Source: Candidatus Latescibacterota bacterium (GTDB lineage: Bacteria > Latescibacterota > UBA2968 > UBA8231). Taken from it: a stretch of DNA of 64,000 nucleotides. Shown piece after piece: positions 32,811-43,769 of the stretch. Both the position numbers and the translations under genes were made by a program. The DNA lies in the NCBI GenBank assembly GCA_965203175.1, contig OZ241867.1, positions 3,360,001 through 3,424,000 of the forward strand, read 5' to 3'. Positions within the stretch are counted from its first letter, which is position 1. Every line of letters starts with the position of its first letter. The notes under the pieces are model-generated. The model was given only the letters and a program-made list of their open reading frames with translations, ran no database searches and was not told the DNA's origin.

Positions 32811-33974
32811 TCAAACTCCACGATTGGAACATAAATGCTCAATGAAGGGCTCAAGTCTCTCTATGAGCAAACGAACAATATTCTCTCTATGTTCGTCCGA
32901 AATCCTTTCCCCTGGCTGAGCACCACAGTTGGCGAAGGCATATTTCAAGGCATCAGCACTAGCATTAGAAATTGCGTTTCTCACCGACTTTTCCATATAG
33001 AATTCCAACAGATCGCCAATCGCGGACTCAAATTTTTCCAAGTCCAAATTCTTGTATGAGTAGGTCGCAACAATCTCTTCTGGAGTAAGAGCTAGGTTAA
33101 CCTTGATGTCCAATTCATTTCCGCTAATGGGATCGATAGCATAACACCGAGAAAAACTCTCACCGTCGTAGTTGCTCGACAAGCACAGCACAATTCGCTG
33201 GAAGCCAAAGTATTCCACGTATCCCAGAACTTGGCGAGATTCAGGATCGCCTCGCACGAAAACACAATGAAAAAATACCCTCTTAGGACGATTTAGAACG
33301 AGATCCGTAGCATTATAGTATCCAAAACATGGTTCACCATTGGCTAACAAATAGTCATGCGCGTGTTCGCAATCGATGAGATGGAGCCCTATATCCGAGG
33401 TAAGTGCGAGACATGACTTAACAATTGAGCGACCGGCTATCTCTCCTCCGAAAGTAAGTGGTATAGATAGTGGATCTTCGAGATATTCCCTTCGTGGGGC
33501 TGCCTTCTCTAACACTTGGTCTATATCGAGATTTGGATATTTCCTAACCAAACCCGGCAGCATCTTTTTCAACTCTTTTATGGATGAGGTGCGAATTTTT
33601 ACTTCTGTTTGATCGCCCAAGGCTCGCTCGGTGAAGACTGTTTCGCGCATGTTCATTCGTCCATCCGCGTGGATAAGAATTTTATCGCCCCCCACGGTTT
33701 CAACCAGAACAGGCTGATTCTCACCCCGCTGACGCCGAATATTCAGCAACGTGCAGAGGGGCTTCAGTTGCGTAACGAGTTCATGGTCCCATTCTGCACC
33801 GGTTGTACTGTTACAATCTTTGCAGATAAAATTGTACACGGTTTTCTTCCCGCCTATCGCGTTCGGAATGACGTGTTCTTTACTGCCGTTCTTATTACGG
33901 ATCGGTGTATTGCAGAGAGCACAGCACTTCTCTTGATCGATTTTCTCAGTTATGTCAGTAACTTGCGTAGACAC
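32811..33974 (-). CDS. Stand-alone HNH endonuclease with large C-terminal region (candidate defence)
   Basis: CALC...SKEHVIPNAIGG...ICKDCNS; lower GC; start GTG 33974 with RBS AAGGAG. Confidence 0.82.
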   Translation of the reverse strand: MSTQVTDITEKIDQEKCCALCNTPIRNKNGSKEHVIPNAIGGKKTVYNFICKDCNSTTGAEWDHELVTQLKPLCTLLNIRRQRGENQPVLVETVGGDKILIHADGRMNMRETVFTERALGDQTEVKIRTSSIKELKKMLPGLVRKYPNLDIDQVLEKAAPRREYLEDPLSIPLTFGGEIAGRSIVKSCLALTSDIGLHLIDCEHAHDYLLANGEPCFGYYNATDLVLNRPKRVFFHCVFVRGDPESRQVLGYVEYFGFQRIVLCLSSNYDGESFSRCYAIDPISGNELDIKVNLALTPEEIVATYSYKNLDLEKFESAIGDLLEFYMEKSVRNAISNASADALKYAFANCGAQPGERISDEHRENIVRLLIERLEPFIEHLCSNRGV

Positions 33975-34764
33975 AGTTGTCTCCTTACTAATCTTGCCAT
34001 TGGTCTCAAGGGCTAGTGAGCAGTCCTCGCTCGTCGATGGAAACATATAAAGAGGGCCTTGGGGGGGATTTTTGTCAAGGTACTGAGCCCGTTCAAGGAT
34101 TAGGCCAGATCCCCCGCGGTACTTGGCCCGTTTCCCGTCCTTGGTTGCCGATCCGTGTCGCCCCGTGCAGAGATGGGCCAGAAAATCGTCCGCTTTTGAC
34201 TTGAATGGTGCCCAGTTGCCCGCTCACCTTCTCCGGCCGACAATCCGGGAAGATCGACGAGGCCCGCACCGGCCACCGCGCTCGAGATCAAGCGTCCTCA
34301 GCCGCATGGCCCTGCAGGTGCATACGACCGCGACCAGAGTATTGCCGCTCAGACCGCTTAACTTGCCGAAGATCCGCCGCGGTGGGATGTGCTATGGTGT
34401 GGGGGCGTTCCGATTGAGTTGAGCCAGAGCACCGAGAAGAGCTGGCCGCTGCAGTGGCGCGCTCGACGCCTCGTAAGCAGATCCACACAAAGGCCGCTGA
34501 AATGCCTGAAACACAAACTAAATGGCCGGAGACCCCAAAAAGCCGCTCTGCACGTCAAATCAGTATACAAAATCGTCAGTTGATGCTGATTGGACGAATT
34601 CCGCGAAGGCCGGCCGGAGCAGCCCCGCTTGGTCGGTCGCACGCACGTGAGAATTCGCCCTGTCTTGGCGAAAAGCACCCATACTCGCGCATAACTTATT
34701 GTATTGCAACACCTTAAACGGCGCACGCGGTCGAGAACTACCCCCTCGTTGACCCACACCGAAA

Positions 34765-35951: not shown

Positions 35952-38900
35952 TTAGCCTCCGACTCCGAGTGAGTTGTTCGATCCTACCTGTTCTGGAATC
36001 GAGTCGATACCACAATAGGGATAGCCTTGGAAATATCGCCAACCCGTATCATGTATTAGCAGCGATTTCAGTTTCTGAGACACACAACCGTGAAATGAAT
36101 TGTCTCGCACGGCGAAGATTTTAAGAGAGGAGCCAATCAACTGGTTAGGGAATGGTCCACTAAGCTGATTGAGATTGATGCGAACCTCGATTAAGCGATC
36201 CATACCAGACCAAGATGAAGGCACCGATCCTGTGAGTTGATTCCGATGAAGAAGCAATTTCTCCAAAACAGACAGCTCTCCCCACTCAGCGGGTAGCTCT
36301 CCCACAAGACGACATCCCTCCAGATTCAACTCTTGCAGTTTTGCAAGTTGTCCCCATTCAGGTGGCAAGGAAGCATCCAACGGATTATACGACAGGTCCA
36401 AAGTCGTCAAATTGGGAAGCTGTCCAAGCTCTGGTGGCAGAGGTCCCGTCAAGATATTATCCCGAAGGACTAGCCTCTCAAGAGATTTCAGTTGTCCTAA
36501 TTCCGGTGGAATAGCCCCGGACACCTCTGTGTTGACCAAGTAGAACGTTTGGAGGTTAGAAAGTTGTCCCAACTCGGGCGGAATCGCTCCCGAAAGAAAA
36601 AGATTGCCTTCAAGGTTCAAGTATTTGAGAGAGTCTATCTGCCCCAACTCGGGAGGAATGGCTCCTTCGAGTTGATTGTACCCCAACTCCAATACCTCCA
36701 GCTTAGACATTTGTCCCAACTCGGGCGGGATCGCTCCAGAGAGAAGGCCTTTTTCGCTGAACTCTGAAGGCGATCCTCCAAGCCTGAGAATCTTCAAGTT
36801 CTTGAGATCGGCAATCTCTTTGGGGATAGATCCGGAGAATTGATTGTGACCAAGCCCCAACTCCTCAAGCGAGTCGAGTTGTCCGATCTCAGGCGGAATT
36901 TCTCCATCAAAAAGATGTCCATACAAAGAGAGAATTCTCAGACGTTTCAATCCTGCTATTGTCGGTGGAAGGGGACCGGATAAGCCGTCAGTGACCGAGC
37001 CACCCCTACCACAATGGAATTCCTCAAGCTGAGAAAGATTTCCAATCTCAGGGGGTAACTGGCCAGAGAAAGCACTGCCTTCCAGGTTGAGATATATCAA
37101 GGAAGCAAGTTGTCCGATCTCAGGTGGTATGGGGCCAGTCAACTTGTTCCCATTTAAGATGAGCGTTTCCAGGTGGACTAACTGGCCTAATTCGGCAGGA
37201 AATGGGCCAGTCAAGCGATTATTTGAAAGGTCCAATTCTTCTAAATAGGTCAATTTTCCCAGAACGGCTGGCAGCACATGACCTTCCAGATCTCGCCGTT
37301 CGTCGGGCTGTTTCAATGAGATGACGCGGCCTTCGGCGTTGGTTTTGACCCCCTGCCATTTGGCTAGCGATCCCTCTGAATTCCAGTGACGCCACACGGT
37401 GCTATTATCAGGAGACCCCATAGCTTCGTAGAACTCAATCAGCGCAGCCCTATCAGAGGCAACCGATGAGATAGAGCCGGTCAACGGATTTTCTGTGAGG
37501 TTGAGCGTTTTCAGGTTGGTCAGTTGGTCTAATTCGGGTGGAATAGAGCCAGTCAATTGGTTGTTGGATAGATCCAGCGTTTCGAGGTTGGTCAGTTGTC
37601 CCAAGGTCGCCGGGATCGATCCGTCCAATTGGTTATTGGACAGGTCCAATGTTTTCAAGTTGGTCAGTTGGTCTAATTCGGGTGGAATAGAGCCAGTCAA
37701 TCGGTTATCGGATAGGTCTAGCGTTTCGAGGTTAGTCAGTTGTCCCAAGGTCGCCGGTATTGGACCGGTCAACCAGTTATCGGACAGTATGAGTGTTTCA
37801 AGGTTCGCTAATTGTCCCAAGGTGGCCGGTATCGGCCCCTCTAACCAGTTCAGTTTAGTACCATAAGAGACATCGTAGTACGTTCTAGCTATGTCGTTAC
37901 CGAGGTTGAGCATTTTCAGGTTGGTCAGTTGGCCCAATTCAGGCGGCAGCGAACCCCTTAAACCGAGACTATTGAGGATGAGTTCTTCCAGATAAGTTAG
38001 CTGGCCCAATTCAGGCACCAATTCTGTTTCACTGAAGCGTGATTGCTGATAGTTCTGACCACTCAAAGTGGAAATATGTACATATATGGAACGGTCCCAG
38101 CCGGCCTTGGACGGAGAAATCCTCAGTGAAATGACGCGGCCGTCGGAATTGGTTTGGACGTATACCCACTCGTCTAAAGGGGCCTCGCTTTTCCAGTTGC
38201 CCTCGCTTAAAAGACCACGCGGATTATTTCGGTTTGTTCTCGTCGCGTCGTAGAATGCCTCTAGTGCCGCCTTATCGGAGGCGGCGGATCCCTCTGGAGC
38301 GGGAGGCAAGGATGCGGGAGGCACCGGCTCGCCGATGCCCAATGGGTTGGTCCCATCTTGTTCGGCCGTCAAGAAACCGCCCAACAGAGCGAGATCCGTC
38401 CAGTCTATTTGTCCGTCAGCGTTGACGTCTCCTAGCTGTATGTTGCCACCCGGAGGGACCGTGCCATTCAACAGGTAAGCGAAAAGAACAAGCGCATCGT
38501 CCCCATCGACGGTTTGGTCTCCATCCACATCGCCTAAGAGAGGGGACGCCCCGTTTTCTACGAGCTTGCCCGCAGGATGTGACCGGGGAACCTCATCAAC
38601 GGTTTGGCCTTGATCCGCATCGCCGCTCTCTGCGAGTTTGTCCACAGGATATGCCGGGACCTCATTGATAGTTATGACCTTCCCTGTAAAGACAAACGCC
38701 GTGTCCACATAGGTTGCCATATAAGGCCCGGAAACGCCCAACCAATAGCTCGGCCGTTGAGGAACAGAGACCTCGAAGTTACCTTGGTTATCCACGGGCG
38801 CACGAGCCAGTACCACCAGACGCTCCGCGTCTATGATAACTACCTCGGCCTTCGACATTGAAGATCCCTCAACCGTCATAATTTGGCCTCGTTGGGCCTG

Positions 38901-39200
38901 TTCTGGGCCAGACGGATAGAGGGGATTGGCGGACTGGTTTTCAGGCCGACGGTCGTCGTCGCCACAAGCTACCATCGACAAGGTGAACGTCAGAACCAAC
39001 AGGCTACGTATGGTACATTTTCCCGGTTTAGTCTCTTTGCGCCATAGGCAGCAGGAGAACACGCGGGCTTTCCTTCTTCCTACCTTCCCATCACACCATA
39101 CCCGTTTTGAAAAGCTAAAAGACTCCGAGACAATAGGCGTCTTGGGGACGCATGACAGGACGAAGAGCAGAAATTCTACGAGGGCGGCGAGGCGAGACAT
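35952..39200 (-). CDS. Eukaryote-like leucine-rich repeat lipoprotein with dockerin-like domain
   Basis: Many 24-aa plant-type LRRs (LxxLdLSxNxLtGxIPxeLgqL), two LRR-NT caps (SDxAALxxFY), GDVDGD/GDVNAD dockerin-like pair; start uncertain. Confidence 0.88.
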   Translation of the reverse strand: MSRLAALVEFLLFVLSCVPKTPIVSESFSFSKRVWCDGKVGRRKARVFSCCLWRKETKPGKCTIRSLLVLTFTLSMVACGDDDRRPENQSANPLYPSGPEQAQRGQIMTVEGSSMSKAEVVIIDAERLVVLARAPVDNQGNFEVSVPQRPSYWLGVSGPYMATYVDTAFVFTGKVITINEVPAYPVDKLAESGDADQGQTVDEVPRSHPAGKLVENGASPLLGDVDGDQTVDGDDALVLFAYLLNGTVPPGGNIQLGDVNADGQIDWTDLALLGGFLTAEQDGTNPLGIGEPVPPASLPPAPEGSAASDKAALEAFYDATRTNRNNPRGLLSEGNWKSEAPLDEWVYVQTNSDGRVISLRISPSKAGWDRSIYVHISTLSGQNYQQSRFSETELVPELGQLTYLEELILNSLGLRGSLPPELGQLTNLKMLNLGNDIARTYYDVSYGTKLNWLEGPIPATLGQLANLETLILSDNWLTGPIPATLGQLTNLETLDLSDNRLTGSIPPELDQLTNLKTLDLSNNQLDGSIPATLGQLTNLETLDLSNNQLTGSIPPELDQLTNLKTLNLTENPLTGSISSVASDRAALIEFYEAMGSPDNSTVWRHWNSEGSLAKWQGVKTNAEGRVISLKQPDERRDLEGHVLPAVLGKLTYLEELDLSNNRLTGPFPAELGQLVHLETLILNGNKLTGPIPPEIGQLASLIYLNLEGSAFSGQLPPEIGNLSQLEEFHCGRGGSVTDGLSGPLPPTIAGLKRLRILSLYGHLFDGEIPPEIGQLDSLEELGLGHNQFSGSIPKEIADLKNLKILRLGGSPSEFSEKGLLSGAIPPELGQMSKLEVLELGYNQLEGAIPPELGQIDSLKYLNLEGNLFLSGAIPPELGQLSNLQTFYLVNTEVSGAIPPELGQLKSLERLVLRDNILTGPLPPELGQLPNLTTLDLSYNPLDASLPPEWGQLAKLQELNLEGCRLVGELPAEWGELSVLEKLLLHRNQLTGSVPSSWSGMDRLIEVRINLNQLSGPFPNQLIGSSLKIFAVRDNSFHGCVSQKLKSLLIHDTGWRYFQGYPYCGIDSIPEQVGSNNSLGVGG

Positions 39201-39252
39201 GACGCATCTCCTTGAACGGGAGGAACAGGAGGCCCCCGAAGGGGCCGGGCCA

Positions 39253-39387
39253 GTTCACATTCCCGCAGAGATGCAGAAAGGTTCTACCTATTCGCCAAGG
39301 CGGAAGGGAGCTACCCTTCGCCGGGTCATGGCTGTTGTATTCAGCAGAGGACCCGACTAAGCACGGGTTCTCCACGAGAATGTGAAC
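39253..39387 (-). ncRNA. Candidate structured RNA (135 nt), unknown class
   Basis: 5' GTTCACATTCTCGTGGAGA pairs with 3' TCTCTGCGGGAATGTGAAC (19 bp including G-U); internal hairpins; starts 7 nt after a consensus -10. Confidence 0.62.
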
Positions 39388-39393
39388 GCCTCC

Positions 39394-39422
39394 ATTGTAC
39401 TACGGCTGGACGCGCCGGTCAA
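39394..39422 (-). promoter_or_regulatory. Sigma70 promoter
   Basis: TTGACC-17 bp-TACAAT on the minus strand. Confidence 0.75.
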
Positions 39423-39715: not shown

Positions 39716-39931
39716 ATGCACCGATTTGATCCTGATCGCTATTATCGAACGAACGACCCCGAGCTCGCCGTGATTGCCACGCGTGGTACGCTGAGTCAAT
39801 GGCGCCATCGCGGCGAAGGGCCGCCGTATATCCGCTTCGGAAATCGCGTACTCTACGAGGGCCGTGCGTTGAACGAATGGCTTGATGCACACATAGTTCA
39901 TCCTACCAATCCCCGAGTAAGGATGGATTGA
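39716..39931 (+). CDS. Excisionase/AlpA-like HTH DNA-binding protein
   Basis: RBS GGAGGTG; TLSQWRHRGEGPPYIRFGNRVLYEGRALNEWL. Confidence 0.85.
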   Translation: MHRFDPDRYYRTNDPELAVIATRGTLSQWRHRGEGPPYIRFGNRVLYEGRALNEWLDAHIVHPTNPRVRMD

Positions 39932-39935
39932 CCCC

Positions 39936-41102
39936 ATGCTCGCCAAACCGACCTTTTCCGATTGGGAGGCCGTCGCCGACCATTGGAAACTGCGGCGAGT
40001 AGGCCGCGAGCTTTCCGGCCCTTGCCCCTTGTGCGGAGGCCGCGACCGTTTCCACGTCCGCGAGGAAAGCGCCGGCGCGGTCGTAGGTTGCCGCGGCTGT
40101 ATCGACGGCCAACCGCAAGGCCGTGCCCGCTTTGGCGAGCTGATGCACTTGGTGTTTGGCGACCGCTTTTTGCCGAAATCACCAAAATCGCGTCAGAGGC
40201 TCCAAAACGGCCCTGTAAGCCACCCAAGGGAACACACCAGCGAACCAGCTCGCGCAGTCGAGCAGACCAAAAGCCAACGCCGCGCCGCCGAATTTGGCCG
40301 CCGCTTGTGGAGCGAAGCTGAGCGGATCCCCACACCCTCGAGCACTGGCCCGTCCGACACGTCACCGCCGAGGTTATGGTTTGCAGCTCGTAGCTTGCTG
40401 CACCCTTGGCAGACCCCACCGCCAGCGATCCGCTACCATGCGAGCAAGCAATTGATTGTCACTGGACTGTGGTCCCTCGACGCGGTCCGCACCGCTTGGC
40501 CCGGGCTACCTACCGATCCGCCGCCGGCCGTCCACTGTATAGCGATCGATGAGGAGGGCCAGAAGCGATACCCGCCGCGCAGGACGGATGAAAGGGGTCA
40601 CCGGCACGACAAGCGCACCTATGGCCAGATTACCTACACCGGCGCAGTCTTGGCGCTGGGCGACCCCGAAGCCGTGGCCGATCCCGTTCACATCTGCGAA
40701 GGCGTAGCCGACGCCCTAGCCATCTATTCGCGCAGGCCCGGACTTGTGCTAGCTAGCATCACGACTGTTACGGCCGTAATCAAGCGCCCCGGAGTGTTGC
40801 GACGCATCTACGATAGTCGCCGCGCCTATATCTGGTCGGACATCGACGCCAACCGGCAAGGCCAAGACGCCGGTGCACAACTAGCCGAGGCCCTGAAAGC
40901 GGCAGGCATCACTACCGCGACCGCGACAGGCGACGAAGGCCAAGACCCCGCCCAATGGAGCGCTGAGCTAGGTTGGCCCGTACTAGCTCCCGATCAATTC
41001 GCAGAAATCGCCGGCAAGTCCCTTGACGACGGACAACCGCTTGCCGAGGCCGATCGGATAGCTATTCATACCCTAACAACAGCGCAAGGAAACCAACATT
41101 GA
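39936..41102 (+). CDS. DNA primase (Zn-binding domain plus TOPRIM)
   Basis: GPCPLCGGRDRF...GCRGC zinc finger; ICEGVADALAI and WSDID TOPRIM motifs. Confidence 0.82.
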   Translation: MLAKPTFSDWEAVADHWKLRRVGRELSGPCPLCGGRDRFHVREESAGAVVGCRGCIDGQPQGRARFGELMHLVFGDRFLPKSPKSRQRLQNGPVSHPREHTSEPARAVEQTKSQRRAAEFGRRLWSEAERIPTPSSTGPSDTSPPRLWFAARSLLHPWQTPPPAIRYHASKQLIVTGLWSLDAVRTAWPGLPTDPPPAVHCIAIDEEGQKRYPPRRTDERGHRHDKRTYGQITYTGAVLALGDPEAVADPVHICEGVADALAIYSRRPGLVLASITTVTAVIKRPGVLRRIYDSRRAYIWSDIDANRQGQDAGAQLAEALKAAGITTATATGDEGQDPAQWSAELGWPVLAPDQFAEIAGKSLDDGQPLAEADRIAIHTLTTAQGNQH

Positions 41103-42256
41103 CCCATTACAACCCCCCAACCTCGGCCCACGAAGTCAAAGGCGACCCTCAAGCGCCGCTGCCGCTTGAAGTGATCCAGCAACAGGCCCTCGAAGCCCTC
41201 GACCGAGGCGACTACGAGGCGCTGGCCGAAGTGCTGACTAGCGCCCGTATCCGTTGCGAAGATGAGGCTGACACCCGACCTAGCTGCGAGGCCGTCCGCG
41301 CCGCCTTCGAGCAAGTGGACGGCGATAGCTTGCCCCAAGCCATCGCGAAGGCCGAAACCTTGATCCAGTGGGAACGGCGACCAAAAGCCCGCGCCGCGCA
41401 TAAAATCAACGATCCCCAACCCGCGCCCTTGCTAAAAGCGGCAGGACAAGACGGCCCGCTCTTGACTGCCGGCATGGTGGCGACCCTATCCGGCGCAGGT
41501 GGCACGGGCAAAAGCAAGTTAGCGCTACAAATCGCCTTACAGTTCGCCGAGGCCAACGAGTATGGCCTGACCCCCGACAAACTATGGGAGGCCGCTGCTG
41601 GTTCGGTCCTTGTTTGCACCTACGAAGATGCGGCCGGAATGACCGCCGATTATTTACGCCAGCAGGCCAAGTGCTTGAATTGCCCCGGAGGAGTAGCACA
41701 TGTCAAGGTCCTCGACTTGGCAGGGTATCCGCTTTTCGGTCCTGGCGAAGCGCAAAGCTATAACACCCGCCCATCTCGATTGTTCGGTTTCCACGTGCTA
41801 GCCGACGCCGCCGAGAAAATCGGCCCGCGCCTTATCGTGATCGACCCGGCGCTTTTCGCATATGTTGGCGAGGCCAACGCCACCTCGCCCGTCCGCGAGT
41901 TTGTCGCAGCGCTGGCCCAGCTAGCTAGCCAGCACAACGCCGCCGTGCTATTGGTTGCCCATTCGACTAAGGGCGCTCGCTTAAGCAACAGCAACAGCAA
42001 GCCCGATCTATTCGACGCCGGACAAATGAGTGGATCCGCCGGATGGCACGACGCGGCCCGTGCTTGCCTTGTGCTGACCCGCGAGACAGACGACCCGACC
42101 CGCTGGACGCTAGCCGTTGCAAAAGCCAACTACGGCCCGTCTTTCATAAAGACCTTGCTCAAGTACGAACACCCCGTTTTTCGTGCTGCTGATAGCCCCG
42201 CTTGGAAGGACAAAGACGGCCAACCCACTACCCAAGAAGACAACCCTTATGCCTAA
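41099..42256 (+). CDS. RepA-type (AAA_25) helicase
   Basis: LSGAGGTGKS, YED, LIVIDP, LLVAHSTKG, MSGSAGWHDAAR, KANYGP. Confidence 0.85.
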   Translation: MTHYNPPTSAHEVKGDPQAPLPLEVIQQQALEALDRGDYEALAEVLTSARIRCEDEADTRPSCEAVRAAFEQVDGDSLPQAIAKAETLIQWERRPKARAAHKINDPQPAPLLKAAGQDGPLLTAGMVATLSGAGGTGKSKLALQIALQFAEANEYGLTPDKLWEAAAGSVLVCTYEDAAGMTADYLRQQAKCLNCPGGVAHVKVLDLAGYPLFGPGEAQSYNTRPSRLFGFHVLADAAEKIGPRLIVIDPALFAYVGEANATSPVREFVAALAQLASQHNAAVLLVAHSTKGARLSNSNSKPDLFDAGQMSGSAGWHDAARACLVLTRETDDPTRWTLAVAKANYGPSFIKTLLKYEHPVFRAADSPAWKDKDGQPTTQEDNPYA

Positions 42257-43769
42257 GACGCCGACCCTATCGACGGCGACCACGACCGCCGAAATCCTAG
42301 AGGCAACAGCCCGTTTCTGTTGGTATGAATCCTATAACAACAGCGAGGATTGCCCCACCCAACAGATCCCCACCGAAACCGACCTATACCAAGAACCAAC
42401 CCTTTGGGATCTCGACCGACCCCCTTGGCCCATGGCCCGAGGCTATCCACTTCGGGGCGATCTGCTCAACGAGGTGCGTTCACGGCTGACCCAGTTGACC
42501 AAGTGGATAGCCCCGCATATTAAAGGCGGTATATGGGACGTGTACGCCACTGACTTTAACAGCGGGTGTTTGGAGTTCACGTACCGCCACGCTCCAGACC
42601 GCCCTCCGTTTTTGGGCTGCGAGATTGAAGATATACAGATTGCCTTTCGCAAAGCAGCTCAAGACGGCGACCCGCCCAAGCACCCGATCGTCCTAATGGT
42701 CGAGGCGTGGCAACAAAGGCCCCGGTCGGTAGAAACCGACCGCAAGCAGCACGGTATCCTTCCCCTTGTGTTGAAGGCGACACAACTACACCCACAAGAC
42801 GCAACCGAAAGCGACAACCGCAACGGGCAACTCCCCTTTGTTTCGACCCCTAACCCTTTGGGAAAGTATCACAGCCAACAAGCGGAGCTACCCTTTTTAG
42901 AAACACCCAAGCCCGGCAAGTTTATCCCCGCCCTACCCGTGCAGCGTTATGACCTGGCAGGTGGGCCGACACGTACCAAAGGTCCCGGAGCGCCCTACGC
43001 ACAGCGCCTTTTCTTTGAGGCGCTTATGTCCGTTCCACGTCAAGACCGGATAGCGCACATGTCCAGCAAAGTTACCCTTACACTGCGCGATTTAGTGGCT
43101 TGGATATGGCCCAAGGGCTGGGAGCGTAAACGCAACTTGCCCGCGCTGGCTCGGGCGCTCGAAGATTTAAACAAGATGGTGATAAGATGGGAGCGCCGCG
43201 ATTGGATTCTTGTTGTCTGCCGCTCCTTTCCAACATGGGAAACTAAGCTAGAAGACTTGATATGCTTGGAAGTTTTCAACTTACCCGGCAGCGACCAAGG
43301 CCCCTTGATTAACCGCTTCTGGTCCCGGCACTGGGGGTTGGTATGTTTCACAGCCTACCGATCTTACTTACGGCTGGCCTACATTTGGGACGATGTGAAA
43401 GCCAAGCGCGGAGGCCGTCGCGTCTTTGCAACCCGCCCGAAGGTACTACGAGACGAACAGGACCGGCTTGTGAACGCCAAAGGCGAGCTTATCCTTAAAG
43501 GCGGCCAGCCTGTCAAAGATTGGAGCCACCCGCAAGCGATCCAAACCGGCAAGCTTGAGCGCAATCCAGCAGCCGACCACGTGCCCGAGCTTGGCCCCGA
43601 CGATCTGGCCGAGCTCGGATTCAACGACGACCCTAACTTGACCCGGCAGCAGATAGCCGACCGCGCCCGCAAAACTCGTGTTGCTTTGCGGAAAATGGAG
43701 GCCGCCGGCGCGGTTGTATTGGAAACAGACCAATACGGCGGAGTAAGGGTTCTAGAACCGGCAGGGTAA
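42249..43769 (+). CDS. Hypothetical protein, probable replication initiator
   Basis: ATG 42249 overlaps the helicase end; winged-helix-like segment (TLRDLVAWIWP...LARALEDL); iterons lie just downstream. Confidence 0.55.
   Translation: MPKTPTLSTATTTAEILEATARFCWYESYNNSEDCPTQQIPTETDLYQEPTLWDLDRPPWPMARGYPLRGDLLNEVRSRLTQLTKWIAPHIKGGIWDVYATDFNSGCLEFTYRHAPDRPPFLGCEIEDIQIAFRKAAQDGDPPKHPIVLMVEAWQQRPRSVETDRKQHGILPLVLKATQLHPQDATESDNRNGQLPFVSTPNPLGKYHSQQAELPFLETPKPGKFIPALPVQRYDLAGGPTRTKGPGAPYAQRLFFEALMSVPRQDRIAHMSSKVTLTLRDLVAWIWPKGWERKRNLPALARALEDLNKMVIRWERRDWILVVCRSFPTWETKLEDLICLEVFNLPGSDQGPLINRFWSRHWGLVCFTAYRSYLRLAYIWDDVKAKRGGRRVFATRPKVLRDEQDRLVNAKGELILKGGQPVKDWSHPQAIQTGKLERNPAADHVPELGPDDLAELGFNDDPNLTRQQIADRARKTRVALRKMEAAGAVVLETDQYGGVRVLEPAG

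Follow-up and report, generated by a model that had tools for sequence, protein, structure and literature searches.

Upstream of a gene for a leucine-rich repeat (LRR) lipoprotein, on the minus strand of a 64-kb stretch of DNA (the window), lies a sequence that an earlier note had read as a promoter-defined structured RNA of no named class. The locus raises three questions: whether such an RNA exists, whether it belongs to a known family, and what it does for the gene behind it.

A promoter, a predicted transcript start and a stable fold

Reading the minus strand confirmed the promoter that had been claimed. TTGACC (39422–39417) and TACAAT (39399–39394) are separated by a 17-nt spacer, and the predicted +1, G39387, lies 7 nt past the −10 hexamer and is the first base of a helix referred to here as P1. 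RNA position n at this locus corresponds to window position 39388 − n. P1 itself is as the earlier note described it, a 19-bp helix of 39387–39369 with 39271–39253 that contains 16 Watson-Crick and three wobble pairs (U11-G125, U14-G122 and G15-U121). The GGCCCC-TTCG-GGGGCC hairpin, the ribosome-binding site and the ATG are also present (Table 1). The 166-nt stretch folds at −83.1 kcal/mol, compared with a shuffle mean of −57.6 kcal/mol (sd 4.1; z = −6.23), and none of 200 dinucleotide shuffles was equally stable.

The promoter arrangement is shared by related loci. Counted from P1 base 1, a TTG starts at −36 to −34 and TANNNT lies at −12, and the distance from promoter to P1 is fixed in a Latescibacterota set and in a multi-phylum set alike. 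For three paralogues in this genome, the match begins exactly at the predicted +1. The flagged sequence was thus confirmed as a real folded RNA at the predicted start of the message of a surface-protein gene.

We compared the locus to known RNAs and to the literature. No Rfam family matched at its gathering score in the 64-kb window, and at E ≤ 10 the only matches around the site were sR4 and PhotoRC-I, both short and irrelevant. The Infernal search against Rfam, which had been proposed as a check, therefore gave no confident hit at the site, in agreement with a structured RNA of no named class. A tRNA and tmRNA scan found none within the window. Literature searches that combined Latescibacter with riboswitch or RNA motifs returned no description of such an RNA, and those on sponge symbionts with RNA motifs returned no match. 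The main text of Weinberg 2017 uses none of the words secreted, lipoprotein, signal peptide, sponge or Poribacteria, and a 2026 bioRxiv language-model survey has no mention of sponge, lipoprotein or Latescibacter.

Table 1 Features of the minus-strand locus, in the order of transcription
Feature	Window position	RNA position	Strand	Description
Sigma-70-type promoter	39394..39422		−	−35 TTGACC, −10 TACAAT
P1 5′ arm	39369..39387	1–19	−	First base is the predicted transcript start
J1 linker	39358..39368	20–30	−	Conserved CCCG; may pair locally with a CGGG in the segment that follows
Pseudoknot 5′ strand	39349..39357	31–39	−	GUCGGGUCC
Core hairpin	39283..39348	40–105	−	P3, internal loop, bulge, P5, P4, H2
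P3		40–44 with 101–105	−	98.1% and 97.8% paired, covarying
Core internal loop and bulge	in 39283..39348		−	UGAAUA / GAAUAG, bulge CAACA; loops nearly invariant
P5		56–58 with 92–94	−	99.5% paired (measured in alignment A6 only)
P4		66–68 with 87–89	−	90% and 88% paired
H2	in 39283..39348		−	Tip GGG-UAGCU-CCC; 81% and 84% paired
J3′ linker	39272..39282	106–116	−	Segment lengths constrained family-wide
P1 3′ arm	39253..39271	117–135	−	19 consecutive pairs with the 5′ arm
Pseudoknot 3′ strand	39244..39252	136–144	−	UGGCCCGGC; directly abuts P1
GC hairpin	39231..39246		−	GGCCCC-UUCG-GGGGCC; overlaps the pseudoknot 3′ strand by 3 nt; helix covaries
5′-arm copy	39213..39217		−	GUUCA; repeats the first P1 5′ arm bases and complements the end of the P1 3′ arm
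Shine-Dalgarno and start codon	39198..39213		−	AAGGAG 39213–39208, ATG 39200–39198, before the LRR lipoprotein gene
Downstream gene	35952..39200		−	1082-aa lipoprotein; dockerin domain, numerous leucine-rich repeats; N-terminus MSRLAALVEFLLFVLSC

Covariation strongly supports a predicted pseudoknotted fold

We assessed the structure in two alignments. A5 contains 92 Latescibacterota sequences, and A6, whose members were collected by another route, is a multi-phylum alignment of 73 rows, of which 72 are loci and one is a second, partial match. Fitting to the model biases the alignments A4 to A6 towards its structure, and the member sequences within each are mutually related; with this qualification, 92.0% of the cells in A5 were paired versus 70.9% in shuffles and 38–46% in slid controls, and 94.2% versus 73.5% in A6. 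The covariation score was 0.557 in A5 versus 0.191 for shuffles (0 of 500 shuffles as high) and 0.548 versus 0.187 in A6. Covariation, as judged from these sequences, strongly supports three elements of the predicted fold: P1, an extended irregular hairpin and a pseudoknot of 9 bp. The search for covariation among homologues that the earlier note had suggested was thus passed strongly.

All 18 modelled pairs of P1 covary, with 91–97% of cells paired. When P1 is read on the sense strand of the gene, G-U pairs outnumber A-C mismatches by 148 to 15 and by 114 to 26 in the two sets. Such an excess points to selection acting on an RNA of the gene’s own strand. The length of the 5′ segment (P1 plus linker) is also constrained, at 27 ± 2.7 nt in both sets.

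The pseudoknot pairs GUCGGGUNN, inside P1, with NNNCCCGGC, just 3′ of P1, and joins P1 and the core hairpin at one junction. It was found by an unguided mutual-information scan, in which the last two columns of the 5′ strand and the columns after P1 were among the top pairs. Pairing in this helix reaches 97.1% (A5) and 96.1% (A6), with compensatory changes, and CCCGG in its 3′ strand is ≥ 97% conserved. Eight of the nine pairs form in the window copy. Inner helices initially suggested by RNAalifold (31–38 with 61–68, and GCUG/CAGC) were only 49–86% paired and were replaced after the scan.

The inner hairpins of the earlier note fared unequally. GGCG-AAGGG/CCCTT-CCGCC stands, as P4 plus H2, with covariation. 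GCTG/CAGC does not, and the bases of its GCTG 5′ side pair instead with GUAGA (39287–39283) to form P3. ACCCG/CGGGT is at most an alternative, possible only in place of the long-range pairing of 39357–39349 with 39252–39244. The CC of J1 is conserved in the consensus of both A5 and A6; local CCCG/CGGG pairing is one that we only infer, because these bases are invariant and cannot covary.

A large leader family in many phyla

This genome encodes three strong copies, two of them at other, unrelated loci. They are 79–85% identical over the part that aligns, and their arms differ with compensatory changes. We detected ~190 loci in 61 out of 151 Latescibacterota genomes, with a maximum of 14 per genome. 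A pattern search gave at least 120 matches in genomes labelled as 12 phyla (Latescibacterota and 11 further phyla). All of the 72 non-Latescibacterota loci tested matched the model at full length. Occurrence is patchy within phyla, and the copies of one genome have diverged from each other and lie dispersed, not in arrays. The window RNA is a member of a large, undescribed leader family that precedes secreted-protein genes in uncultured bacteria of many phyla.

This distribution bears on the suggestion that the RNA controls replication or immunity of an integrative element. The comparison had been to P4 CI RNA, a phage immunity RNA, and the likeness is one of position: a small structured RNA has genes of an integrative element as its neighbours, in the window those for an excisionase-like HTH_17 protein, a primase and AAA_25. 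The suggestion is not supported by the numbers of loci, genomes and further phyla given above. The family lies overwhelmingly outside such elements, with almost every copy directly before a different, unrelated gene, and no Rfam phage immunity RNA matched.

Some copies do travel on mobile DNA. In two genomes (G072 and G168), the RNA and a small exported-protein gene are carried as a passenger inside elements of the IS1 family (four copies of 2768 bp) and the IS1595 family (33-bp inverted ends), with identical RNA copies riding inside. A function for the IS elements themselves was rejected, since the RNA is separate from the element ends, except that the promoter adjoins one inverted end. A phage or plasmid origin was also rejected: there were no pattern matches in viral contigs, and BLASTN searches with three different members gave no plasmid match.

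The RNA mostly precedes genes for exported proteins

The protein encoded downstream in the window has the Pfam domains LRR_4, LRR_8 and Dockerin_1. Only 31 nt separate the GC hairpin from its start codon, which upholds the proposal that the RNA is a leader of the LRR gene. Across the family, the start codon follows the end of P1 at a median of 56 nt (interquartile range 49–67), so there is no room for a second promoter.

Most downstream genes encode signal-peptide or lipoprotein N-termini. Hydrophobic N-termini were found for 55/84 and 40/58 of the first downstream ORFs; the same crude criterion picks out 30% of genome ORFs. The Pfam domains encoded downstream include LRR, WD40, dockerin, S8, M8/M12, CsgG-like, FN3 and NHL.

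Resemblance to sRNA-Xcc1 and to riboswitches

The only Rfam family that repeatedly aligned to relatives of the window RNA is sRNA-Xcc1 (RF02221), and it did so across its whole 87-position model. According to the available text of its description, sRNA-Xcc1 is an 88-nt sRNA of Xanthomonas campestris, seen as a ~100-nt band with mapped ends (PMC2996969). Later work, as far as its available text goes, places it in integron cassettes and reports multiple copies, an own promoter and a position upstream of a same-direction gene in mobile DNA (bioRxiv 10.1101/2025.06.18.660453, PMC12189769). RF02221 scored 23.8–33.7 bits in 7 of 32 relatives (3 of 12 and 4 of 20), and a short variant in genome G098 was also matched. 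The gathering score of 53 bits was reached by no relative tested, none of the 151 genomes of the phylum exceeded the cut-off, and the window copy had no match to RF02221 either locally at E ≤ 10 or genome-wide at E ≤ 1.

The family thus appears, on these alignments, to be distantly resembling sRNA-Xcc1. In the cmscan alignments, the 9-bp GC closing stem of sRNA-Xcc1 (G-C-GG...CC-G-C) aligns with the pseudoknot of the window family, its inner helix corresponds to P3, and its AAUACAA and GAAUA strands correspond to the conserved internal loop. The closing-stem, inner-helix and unpaired-strand elements had been derived independently from covariation in the window family. Both families are also multi-copy, have their own promoter, lie upstream of a same-direction gene and have at least some copies on mobile DNA. 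Neither this weak kinship nor the pseudoknot had been noticed in the earlier note.

The two RNAs differ in several respects. Whereas sRNA-Xcc1 has a second local hairpin, the window RNA uses the corresponding strand (39271–39253) in P1, paired with 39387–39369; because the 5′ extension pairs with the second-hairpin strand, the closing stem becomes a pseudoknot in the window family. The window family has an extra P4/H2 branch at the tip, and its 3′ GC hairpin lacks the U tail in which sRNA-Xcc1 ends. The window RNA is predicted to be ~157 nt long, compared with 88 nt, and is followed by an exported-protein gene, whereas symE follows sRNA-Xcc1. The hosts are uncultured bacteria of other phyla.

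In the ZTP, fluoride, SAM-II and c-di-GMP-II riboswitches, a pseudoknot with the 3′ tail is shared with the expression platform. Like them, the window family is a conserved domain of 5′ leaders, with several copies per genome before different genes, and the 3′ strand of its covarying pseudoknot may enter a downstream hairpin instead. Unlike them, it has a length-constrained 19-bp outer helix that starts at the first transcribed base, and its putative regulon consists of exported proteins, not of a metabolic pathway. There was also no sequence or model match to these classes, and neither a terminator nor masking of the ribosome site was detectable.

A candidate conformational switch

We favour, with moderate confidence, the explanation that the RNA is a cis-acting, promoter-proximal 5′ leader of the LRR lipoprotein mRNA that switches conformation on a trigger. 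A conserved, covarying domain in a 5′ leader, one generic mark of a riboswitch, is present. The RNA would toggle between a compact state, with P1 and the pseudoknot, and an open state, in which the pseudoknot strands would lie in local hairpins (CCCG-CGGG upstream and the GC hairpin downstream) and the 3′ arm of P1 would, in many copies, lose its outer part to a repeat of the 5′ arm that lies downstream. The trigger would be universal, either a small molecule or a conserved cellular factor, and by favouring one state it would set the expression of the downstream gene.

Both rearrangements have a correlate in the sequences. Local folds place the 3′ strand of the pseudoknot in a competing local hairpin in 79/92 and 59/71 sequences. 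The longest perfect complement between the end of the 3′ arm and the downstream sequence has a mean of 5.85 nt within a locus versus 4.69 nt with the arms of other loci. Complementary runs of at least 7 nt occur in 25/92 Latescibacterota sequences versus 5.5% of cross-locus comparisons, and in 10/72 multi-phylum sequences versus 2.6%. The 5′-arm copy is common in the Latescibacterota and weak in other phyla.

We considered several outputs for such a switch. Intrinsic termination at the GC hairpin was rejected, as the U run is missing in nearly all copies: five or more U in the 8 nt after the hairpin were found in only 1/92 and 2/71 sequences, and the window copy continues after the hairpin with UCCUGUUCC, without a U tract. 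Masking of the ribosome site was rejected as a general mechanism. Among 81 leaders, the mean modelled unpaired probability of the Shine-Dalgarno sequence was 0.46 in the open state versus 0.45 in the compact state, with 15 leaders shifting one way and 21 the other. Given no terminator and no consistent change at the Shine-Dalgarno sequence, mRNA stability, or another step that does not involve masking, is the most likely output. One possibility is that the 5′ end would be buried in P1 in the compact state and exposed in the open state.

Some observations count against the favoured explanation. At 19 bp, P1 is longer than is usual for a helix gated by a ligand. The nearest known relative, sRNA-Xcc1, is reported in the available text as a discrete 88-nt sRNA (PMC2996969). 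Some copies lie before genes of cytoplasmic or mobile type, namely those for Mrr, HNH, MunI, dynamin-like and BtrH-like proteins.

Alternative explanations

The RNA might instead be a stand-alone, trans-acting sRNA of ~157 nt that ends at the GC hairpin, with the gene behind it reached by incidental read-through or unrelated. The repeated sub-threshold RF02221 matches cover the core of the RNA, the available description of sRNA-Xcc1 gives a ~100-nt band with mapped ends (PMC2996969), and no conserved ORF directly follows the RNA in the L002-type copy of this genome or in the orthologues of that copy. We nevertheless consider this unlikely: nearly all copies are without the U tract, whereas a canonical U-tailed terminator is present nearby in this same genome; the spacing from the RNA to a Shine-Dalgarno sequence and start codon is nearly constant; no space is left for a separate promoter of the gene behind; and an sRNA acting in trans, unlinked to that gene, would not readily account for the strong bias towards exported proteins. 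A constitutive, portable expression module would require no sensing. Its helix would protect the mRNA end, its domain would insulate the translation signals, and mobile cargo would be expressed in many hosts. This would fit a predicted transcript start that falls exactly on a base-paired end, a distribution that is patchy within phyla yet extends to 12 labelled phyla, the identical copies carried as passengers of IS1- and IS1595-family elements, and the lack of an evident terminator or Shine-Dalgarno switch. However, end protection needs no near-invariant loops, covarying pseudoknot, competing hairpins or 5′-arm copy, and we regard the module as quite improbable.

The leader could also be cut, as a self-processing ribozyme or as the substrate of a universal RNase, and the cut would set the 5′ end of the mRNA. 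The multiple copies in varied gene contexts are compatible with cleavage, as are the compact pseudoknotted core, the invariant unpaired bases and the 5′ end at a helical junction, and the ~19-bp helix is close to the size of RNase III substrates. Yet no Rfam ribozyme matched, permissive thresholds included, and the fixed promoter already defines a 5′ end; cleavage is accordingly a very remote prospect in our judgement. Hardly credible, finally, is an element acting as DNA, be it an attC site, a miniature inverted-repeat transposon (MITE) or an invertible promoter segment between the arms. The arms do form a 19-bp inverted repeat, and many start with ..CAAC and end with GTTG.., which recalls attC core sites. 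The cargo resembles the content of integron cassettes, in which the available text of the preprint cited above also places sRNA-Xcc1 (bioRxiv 10.1101/2025.06.18.660453). Against a DNA element, G-U is favoured ~4- to 10-fold over A-C, a strand-specific signature of RNA; arm sequence changes freely, each arm compensating the other, and thus retains no recognition site; and the inner helices and the pseudoknot covary too. The AAC/GTT triplet is itself variable (pair 6-220 is AU in 59 sequences, UA in 13, CG in 10 and GU in 5), the copies in a genome are diverged and scattered, and the promoter lies outside the repeat. All three forms were rejected on the strand asymmetry and the free variation of the arms. 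For a MITE, near-identical copies with kept repeats are expected, whereas the copies here share the 79–85% identity noted above and their arm sequence is not conserved.

Returning to the switching leader, we also considered a wider and more speculative version, which we think rather doubtful. The family would form a new sensor class that unrelated uncultured bacteria living in one habitat exchange by horizontal transfer, and it would bind a universal signal, for instance a second messenger such as c-di-GMP or a compound from the host. Expression of a set of secreted and surface proteins would be switched on, including proteases and many proteins with repeats of a eukaryote-like kind (LRR, WD40, NHL and FN3), and the output, an unusual one, would be the burial or exposure of the mRNA’s own 5′ end. 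The sRNA-Xcc1 of plant pathogens would then represent this sensor in a shortened and re-wired form.

Implications

Orphan structured RNAs so widespread and so well backed by covariation are now rare finds. A model of this family could annotate hundreds of loci that Rfam leaves blank. The comparison to sRNA-Xcc1 would offer a natural case of re-wiring in RNA architecture, in which a local hairpin gives way to a helix with a 5′ extension and a closing stem becomes a pseudoknot, and sRNA-Xcc1, so far treated as trans-acting and linked to virulence, gains a structural and cis-regulatory reading. In uncultured bacteria of at least 12 labelled phyla, the family would mark a common point of control over surface and exported proteins, and this exported-protein regulon may bear on the bacteria’s dealings with their surroundings or host.

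A structured RNA, probably a leader, upstream of an LRR lipoprotein gene

The earlier note had placed a promoter-defined RNA on the minus strand, with the predicted transcription start on the first base of a 19-bp helix and with a GC hairpin, a ribosome-binding site and a start codon following. Re-reading the strand bore out all of these elements, as well as the statement that the only three non-Watson-Crick pairs of the outer helix (P1) are G-U pairs on this strand. The 166-nt stretch folds at -83.1 kcal/mol compared with -57.6 ± 4.1 kcal/mol for dinucleotide shuffles (z = -6.23), and 0 of 200 shuffles were as stable. The downstream gene product, 1082 aa long, starts with a lipoprotein-type N-terminus and contains, besides a dockerin domain, numerous leucine-rich repeats. 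The divergence from an excisionase-primase operon also holds: HTH_17, primase and AAA_25 genes form an integrative-element-type operon on the opposite strand. An endonuclease-domain gene and a kinase gene flank the region.

Features of the RNA locus and its surroundings (window positions)
Feature	Detail	Position	Strand	Basis
-35 hexamer	TTGACC	39422-39417	minus	sequence
-10 hexamer	TACAAT, after 17-nt spacer	39399-39394	minus	sequence
Predicted +1	G, 7 nt past -10 hexamer	39387	minus	sequence
Outer helix P1	19 consecutive bp	39387-39369 with 39271-39253	minus	sequence
GC hairpin	GGCCCC-UUCG-GGGGCC	39246-39231	minus	sequence
Shine-Dalgarno site	AAGGAG	39213-39208	minus	sequence
Start of downstream gene	ATG	39200	minus	sequence
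Excisionase-like protein	71 aa, HTH_17	within 39716-43769	plus	
Primase	388 aa, zinc-ribbon/Toprim	within 39716-43769	plus	
ATPase	385 aa, AAA_25	within 39716-43769	plus	
Protein without assigned family	528 aa	within 39716-43769	plus	
Endonuclease-domain protein	411 aa, HNH_5	32811-34046	minus	
Ser/Thr protein kinase	396 aa	47414-48604	minus	

Homologs in the genome and the phylum

BLASTN of the same 6.58-Mb genome retrieved two further copies of the RNA, one 85% identical with a match that starts exactly at the predicted +1 and the other 79% identical. At all three copies, -35/-10-like hexamers put the start at the first base of the outer helix, and the outer helices differ in sequence with their pairing kept. 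The second copy is followed by a short ORF and then a 329-aa BtrH-like protein, and the third by a 210-aa lipoprotein. At the third copy (locus L003, 1633-1720, plus strand), the lipoprotein start is preceded by two occurrences of CCGUCCAAGG(G/A)G about 50 nt apart; this segment includes a copy of the P1 5' arm and the Shine-Dalgarno site.

BLASTN over 168 Latescibacterota genomes gave matches in 63. A covariance model of 32 sequences detected the RNA in 61 of 151 Latescibacterota genomes, with approximately 190 loci and up to 14 per genome, and all 150 matches listed cover the full model length. The distribution is patchy (10 of 46 genera). The genome of the window has three strong copies and one weak copy outside the window (G000:C1:2383195-2383327, plus strand, 28.5 bits, E = 0.004). 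The family is wider than these counts because the model missed a short-apex variant in genome G098 (L263 1501-1640, minus strand; G098:C4:1291553-1291649), which has P1, the pseudoknot and the core helix P3 without the P4/H2 branch and lies ahead of a signal-peptide ORF.

Covariation and revised structure

We aligned 92 Latescibacterota loci to the model. The first consensus had 84.8% of cells paired versus 67.9% in column shuffles, and pairing in its inner helices was weak (49-86%). When all column pairs were scanned for mutual information without guidance, P1 was recovered and two pairings absent from the initial model emerged: RNA positions 31-39 (GUCGGGUNN) with 136-144 (NNNCCCGGC), 9 nt abutting the end of P1, and positions 40-44 with 101-105 (P3). 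The first of these crosses P1 and is therefore a pseudoknot. The revised structure consists of P1, the 9-bp long-range helix, P3, a symmetric-looking internal loop (UGAAUA opposite GAAUAG), a bulge (CAACA), P5, P4 and a terminal hairpin (GGG-UAGCU-CCC).

With this structure, 92.0% of cells are paired in the Latescibacterota alignment (70.9% shuffled; slid controls 38-46%) and 94.2% in a 73-row alignment from other phyla (73.5% shuffled). The covariation among homologs that the earlier note had proposed as a check is present: the scores are 0.557 versus 0.191 shuffled in the first set, a value reached by 0 of 500 shuffles, and 0.548 versus 0.187 in the second. These values come from alignments that are fitted to the model and contain mutually related sequences, and the multi-phylum set was gathered by a pattern fixing part of the core, but not P1 or the 3' strands of the pseudoknot and P3. 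The long-range helix is paired in 97.1% and 96.1% of cells, with compensatory changes at its variable end.

Within P1, the two sets contain 148 and 114 G-U pairs against 15 and 26 A-C mismatches, respectively. What is under selection is therefore RNA with the sense of the gene and not a DNA repeat. Together, the 5' arm and its linker span 27 ± 2.7 nt in both sets; a P1 length so tightly kept fits a compact fold with the two 11-nt linkers folded back alongside P1.

Position relative to exported-protein genes

Counted from the first base of P1, TTG begins at positions -36 to -34 in both sets, and TANNNT at -12. Among 81 leaders with an exported-protein ORF found, the start codon follows the end of P1 by a median of 56 nt (interquartile range 49-67), so there is no room for another promoter. 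This fixed geometry favors the leader alternative that the earlier note had raised, and the RNA is most likely a leader acting in cis. By a crude hydrophobicity measure, the first ORF has a signal-peptide-like N-terminus at 55 of 84 Latescibacterota loci and 40 of 58 multi-phylum loci, against 30% of the ORFs in the window's genome; 24 and 20 of these, respectively, carry a lipobox-like motif. Pfam domains behind the RNA include LRR, WD40, dockerin, subtilase, M8/M12-type peptidase, CsgG-like, FN3, NHL and Ig, and many of the downstream proteins have no Pfam family. Exceptions to the exported-protein rule are Mrr, HNH, MunI and dynamin-like genes and the BtrH-like gene. In several Alphaproteobacteria-labelled loci (L161, L170, L172, L177, L179, L198 and others), the lipobox cysteine of the downstream lipoprotein is followed by 5-8 glycines; these lipoproteins may form a single family that travelled with the leader.

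Spread across phyla and mobile elements

A degenerate pattern of 23 core bases, for which we estimate about 0.2 chance matches, matched at least 120 stretches in a one-genome-per-species collection. The 80 records listed, 35 of them titled 'chromosome', are labelled as Alphaproteobacteria (28), Gammaproteobacteria (13), Gemmatimonadota (10), Acidobacteriota (8), Latescibacterota (8), Binatota (3), Nitrospirota (2), Chloroflexota (2) and one each of Entotheonella, Rhodothermales, Spirochaetia, Opitutia, Syntrophobacterales and an unnamed bacterium. On short contigs the taxon label may be mistaken: near-copies of Latescibacterota loci are present on one 2.3-kb scaffold labelled Opitutia and on two contigs labelled Gemmatimonadetes. 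The model aligns over its full length with all 72 loci from outside Latescibacterota (44-171 bits). We found no match in viral contigs or plasmids. On one Alphaproteobacteria-labelled contig (L148), the P1 3' arm, pseudoknot 3' strand and hairpin are repeated in tandem right after the first set, and a sub-threshold SAM_alpha riboswitch match (30.7 bits; cut-off 36) lies about 120 nt beyond.

One alphaproteobacterial carrier (G168), in whose order the RNA is patchy (5 of 63 genomes), has 16 copies. Three identical ones lie within a 2258-bp IS1595-family element with 33-bp perfect inverted ends (L257 3945-6202, G168:C1, at least three copies), which encodes a KilA-N protein besides the transposase and has the RNA ahead of a 49-aa exported protein that ends in GGYHCH. 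A second IS1595-family element of about 2100 bp in this genome has another copy. The Latescibacterota genome G072 has four 100% identical copies in a 2768-bp repeat (L067 3534-6301, G072:C1) comprising a 71-aa basic ORF, a terminator, the promoter and RNA, a 210-aa exported protein and an IS1-family transposase. The RNA-plus-gene unit is thus a passenger in both IS1- and IS1595-family elements, which provides a route for horizontal spread.

The neighboring operon had suggested a replication or immunity control RNA of the element. This is not supported, because the same RNA is present at two further, unrelated loci of the genome, at ~190 loci of the phylum and in other phyla, nearly always ahead of a different gene and outside such elements.

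Relationship to sRNA-Xcc1

The RNA had been called of unknown class, and indeed no Rfam family reaches threshold; relatives scanned at permissive settings repeatedly gave sub-threshold matches to sRNA-Xcc1 (RF02221, gathering score 53). These were found in 3 of 12 loci from other phyla (25.5-29.6 bits), in 4 of 20 further loci (23.8-32.6 bits) and in the short-apex variant of G098 (33.7 bits, E = 0.0004 in 501 nt). Every match spans the complete 87-position model and lies on the RNA's core: the closing stem of sRNA-Xcc1 aligns with the pseudoknot, its inner helix with P3, and its AAUACAA and GAAUA strands with the internal loop. Since weak RF02221 matches also arise by chance in GC-rich control genomes, we consider the kinship probable, not proven. 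Compared with sRNA-Xcc1, the leader RNA has a helix with a 5' extension in place of the local second hairpin, so that the closing stem becomes a pseudoknot; it has also gained an apical branch, lost the U tail and become fused to exported-protein genes.

sRNA-Xcc1 was reportedly named in 2011 as an integron-encoded, trans-acting RNA. The literature describes a Northern band of ~100 nt with ends mapped to 88 nt in X. campestris 8004 (PMC2996969); a location ahead of symE, in opposite orientation to the integron promoter, within the most widespread Xanthomonas integron cassette (bioRxiv 10.1101/2025.06.18.660453); and seven homologues in Xylella fastidiosa, five in tandem in a genomic island (PMC12189769).

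Possible mechanism and significance

As modelled, the layout of the leader is that of a two-state RNA. A conserved CCCG sits 4-9 nt upstream of CGGG, a local rival for the pseudoknot 5' strand, and the GC hairpin competes for the 3' strand, incorporating some or all of it in the local folds of 79 of 92 and 59 of 71 sequences. In many leaders, the first bases of the P1 5' arm also recur as a 5-10 nt copy located between the GC hairpin and the Shine-Dalgarno site; this copy complements the 3'-arm end and varies in step with it across loci. The longest complement averages 5.85 nt within the same locus versus 4.69 nt with the arms of other loci, and runs of at least 7 nt occur in 25 of 92 Latescibacterota sequences (5.5% in the control) and 10 of 72 from other phyla (2.6%). 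The compact state would contain P1 and the pseudoknot; the open state would form two local hairpins, with the 3'-arm end captured by the downstream copy. By analogy, the nesting of the same three helices around one junction in sRNA-Xcc1 argues that P1, the pseudoknot and P3 can coexist.

A U tract (at least 5 U in 8 nt) follows the GC hairpin in just 1 of 92 and 2 of 71 sequences, and modelled Shine-Dalgarno exposure is unchanged between states (0.46 versus 0.45, n = 81). The first base of the transcript would be paired, and it is the 5' arm that the downstream copy would drive out of P1. We therefore favor, by inference, control that exposes the 5' end of the mRNA or acts at some other step after initiation.

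The finding is real and larger than the earlier note had supposed. On the present comparisons, the leader RNA is probably a new relative, with a more elaborate structure, of an RNA family about which little is understood.
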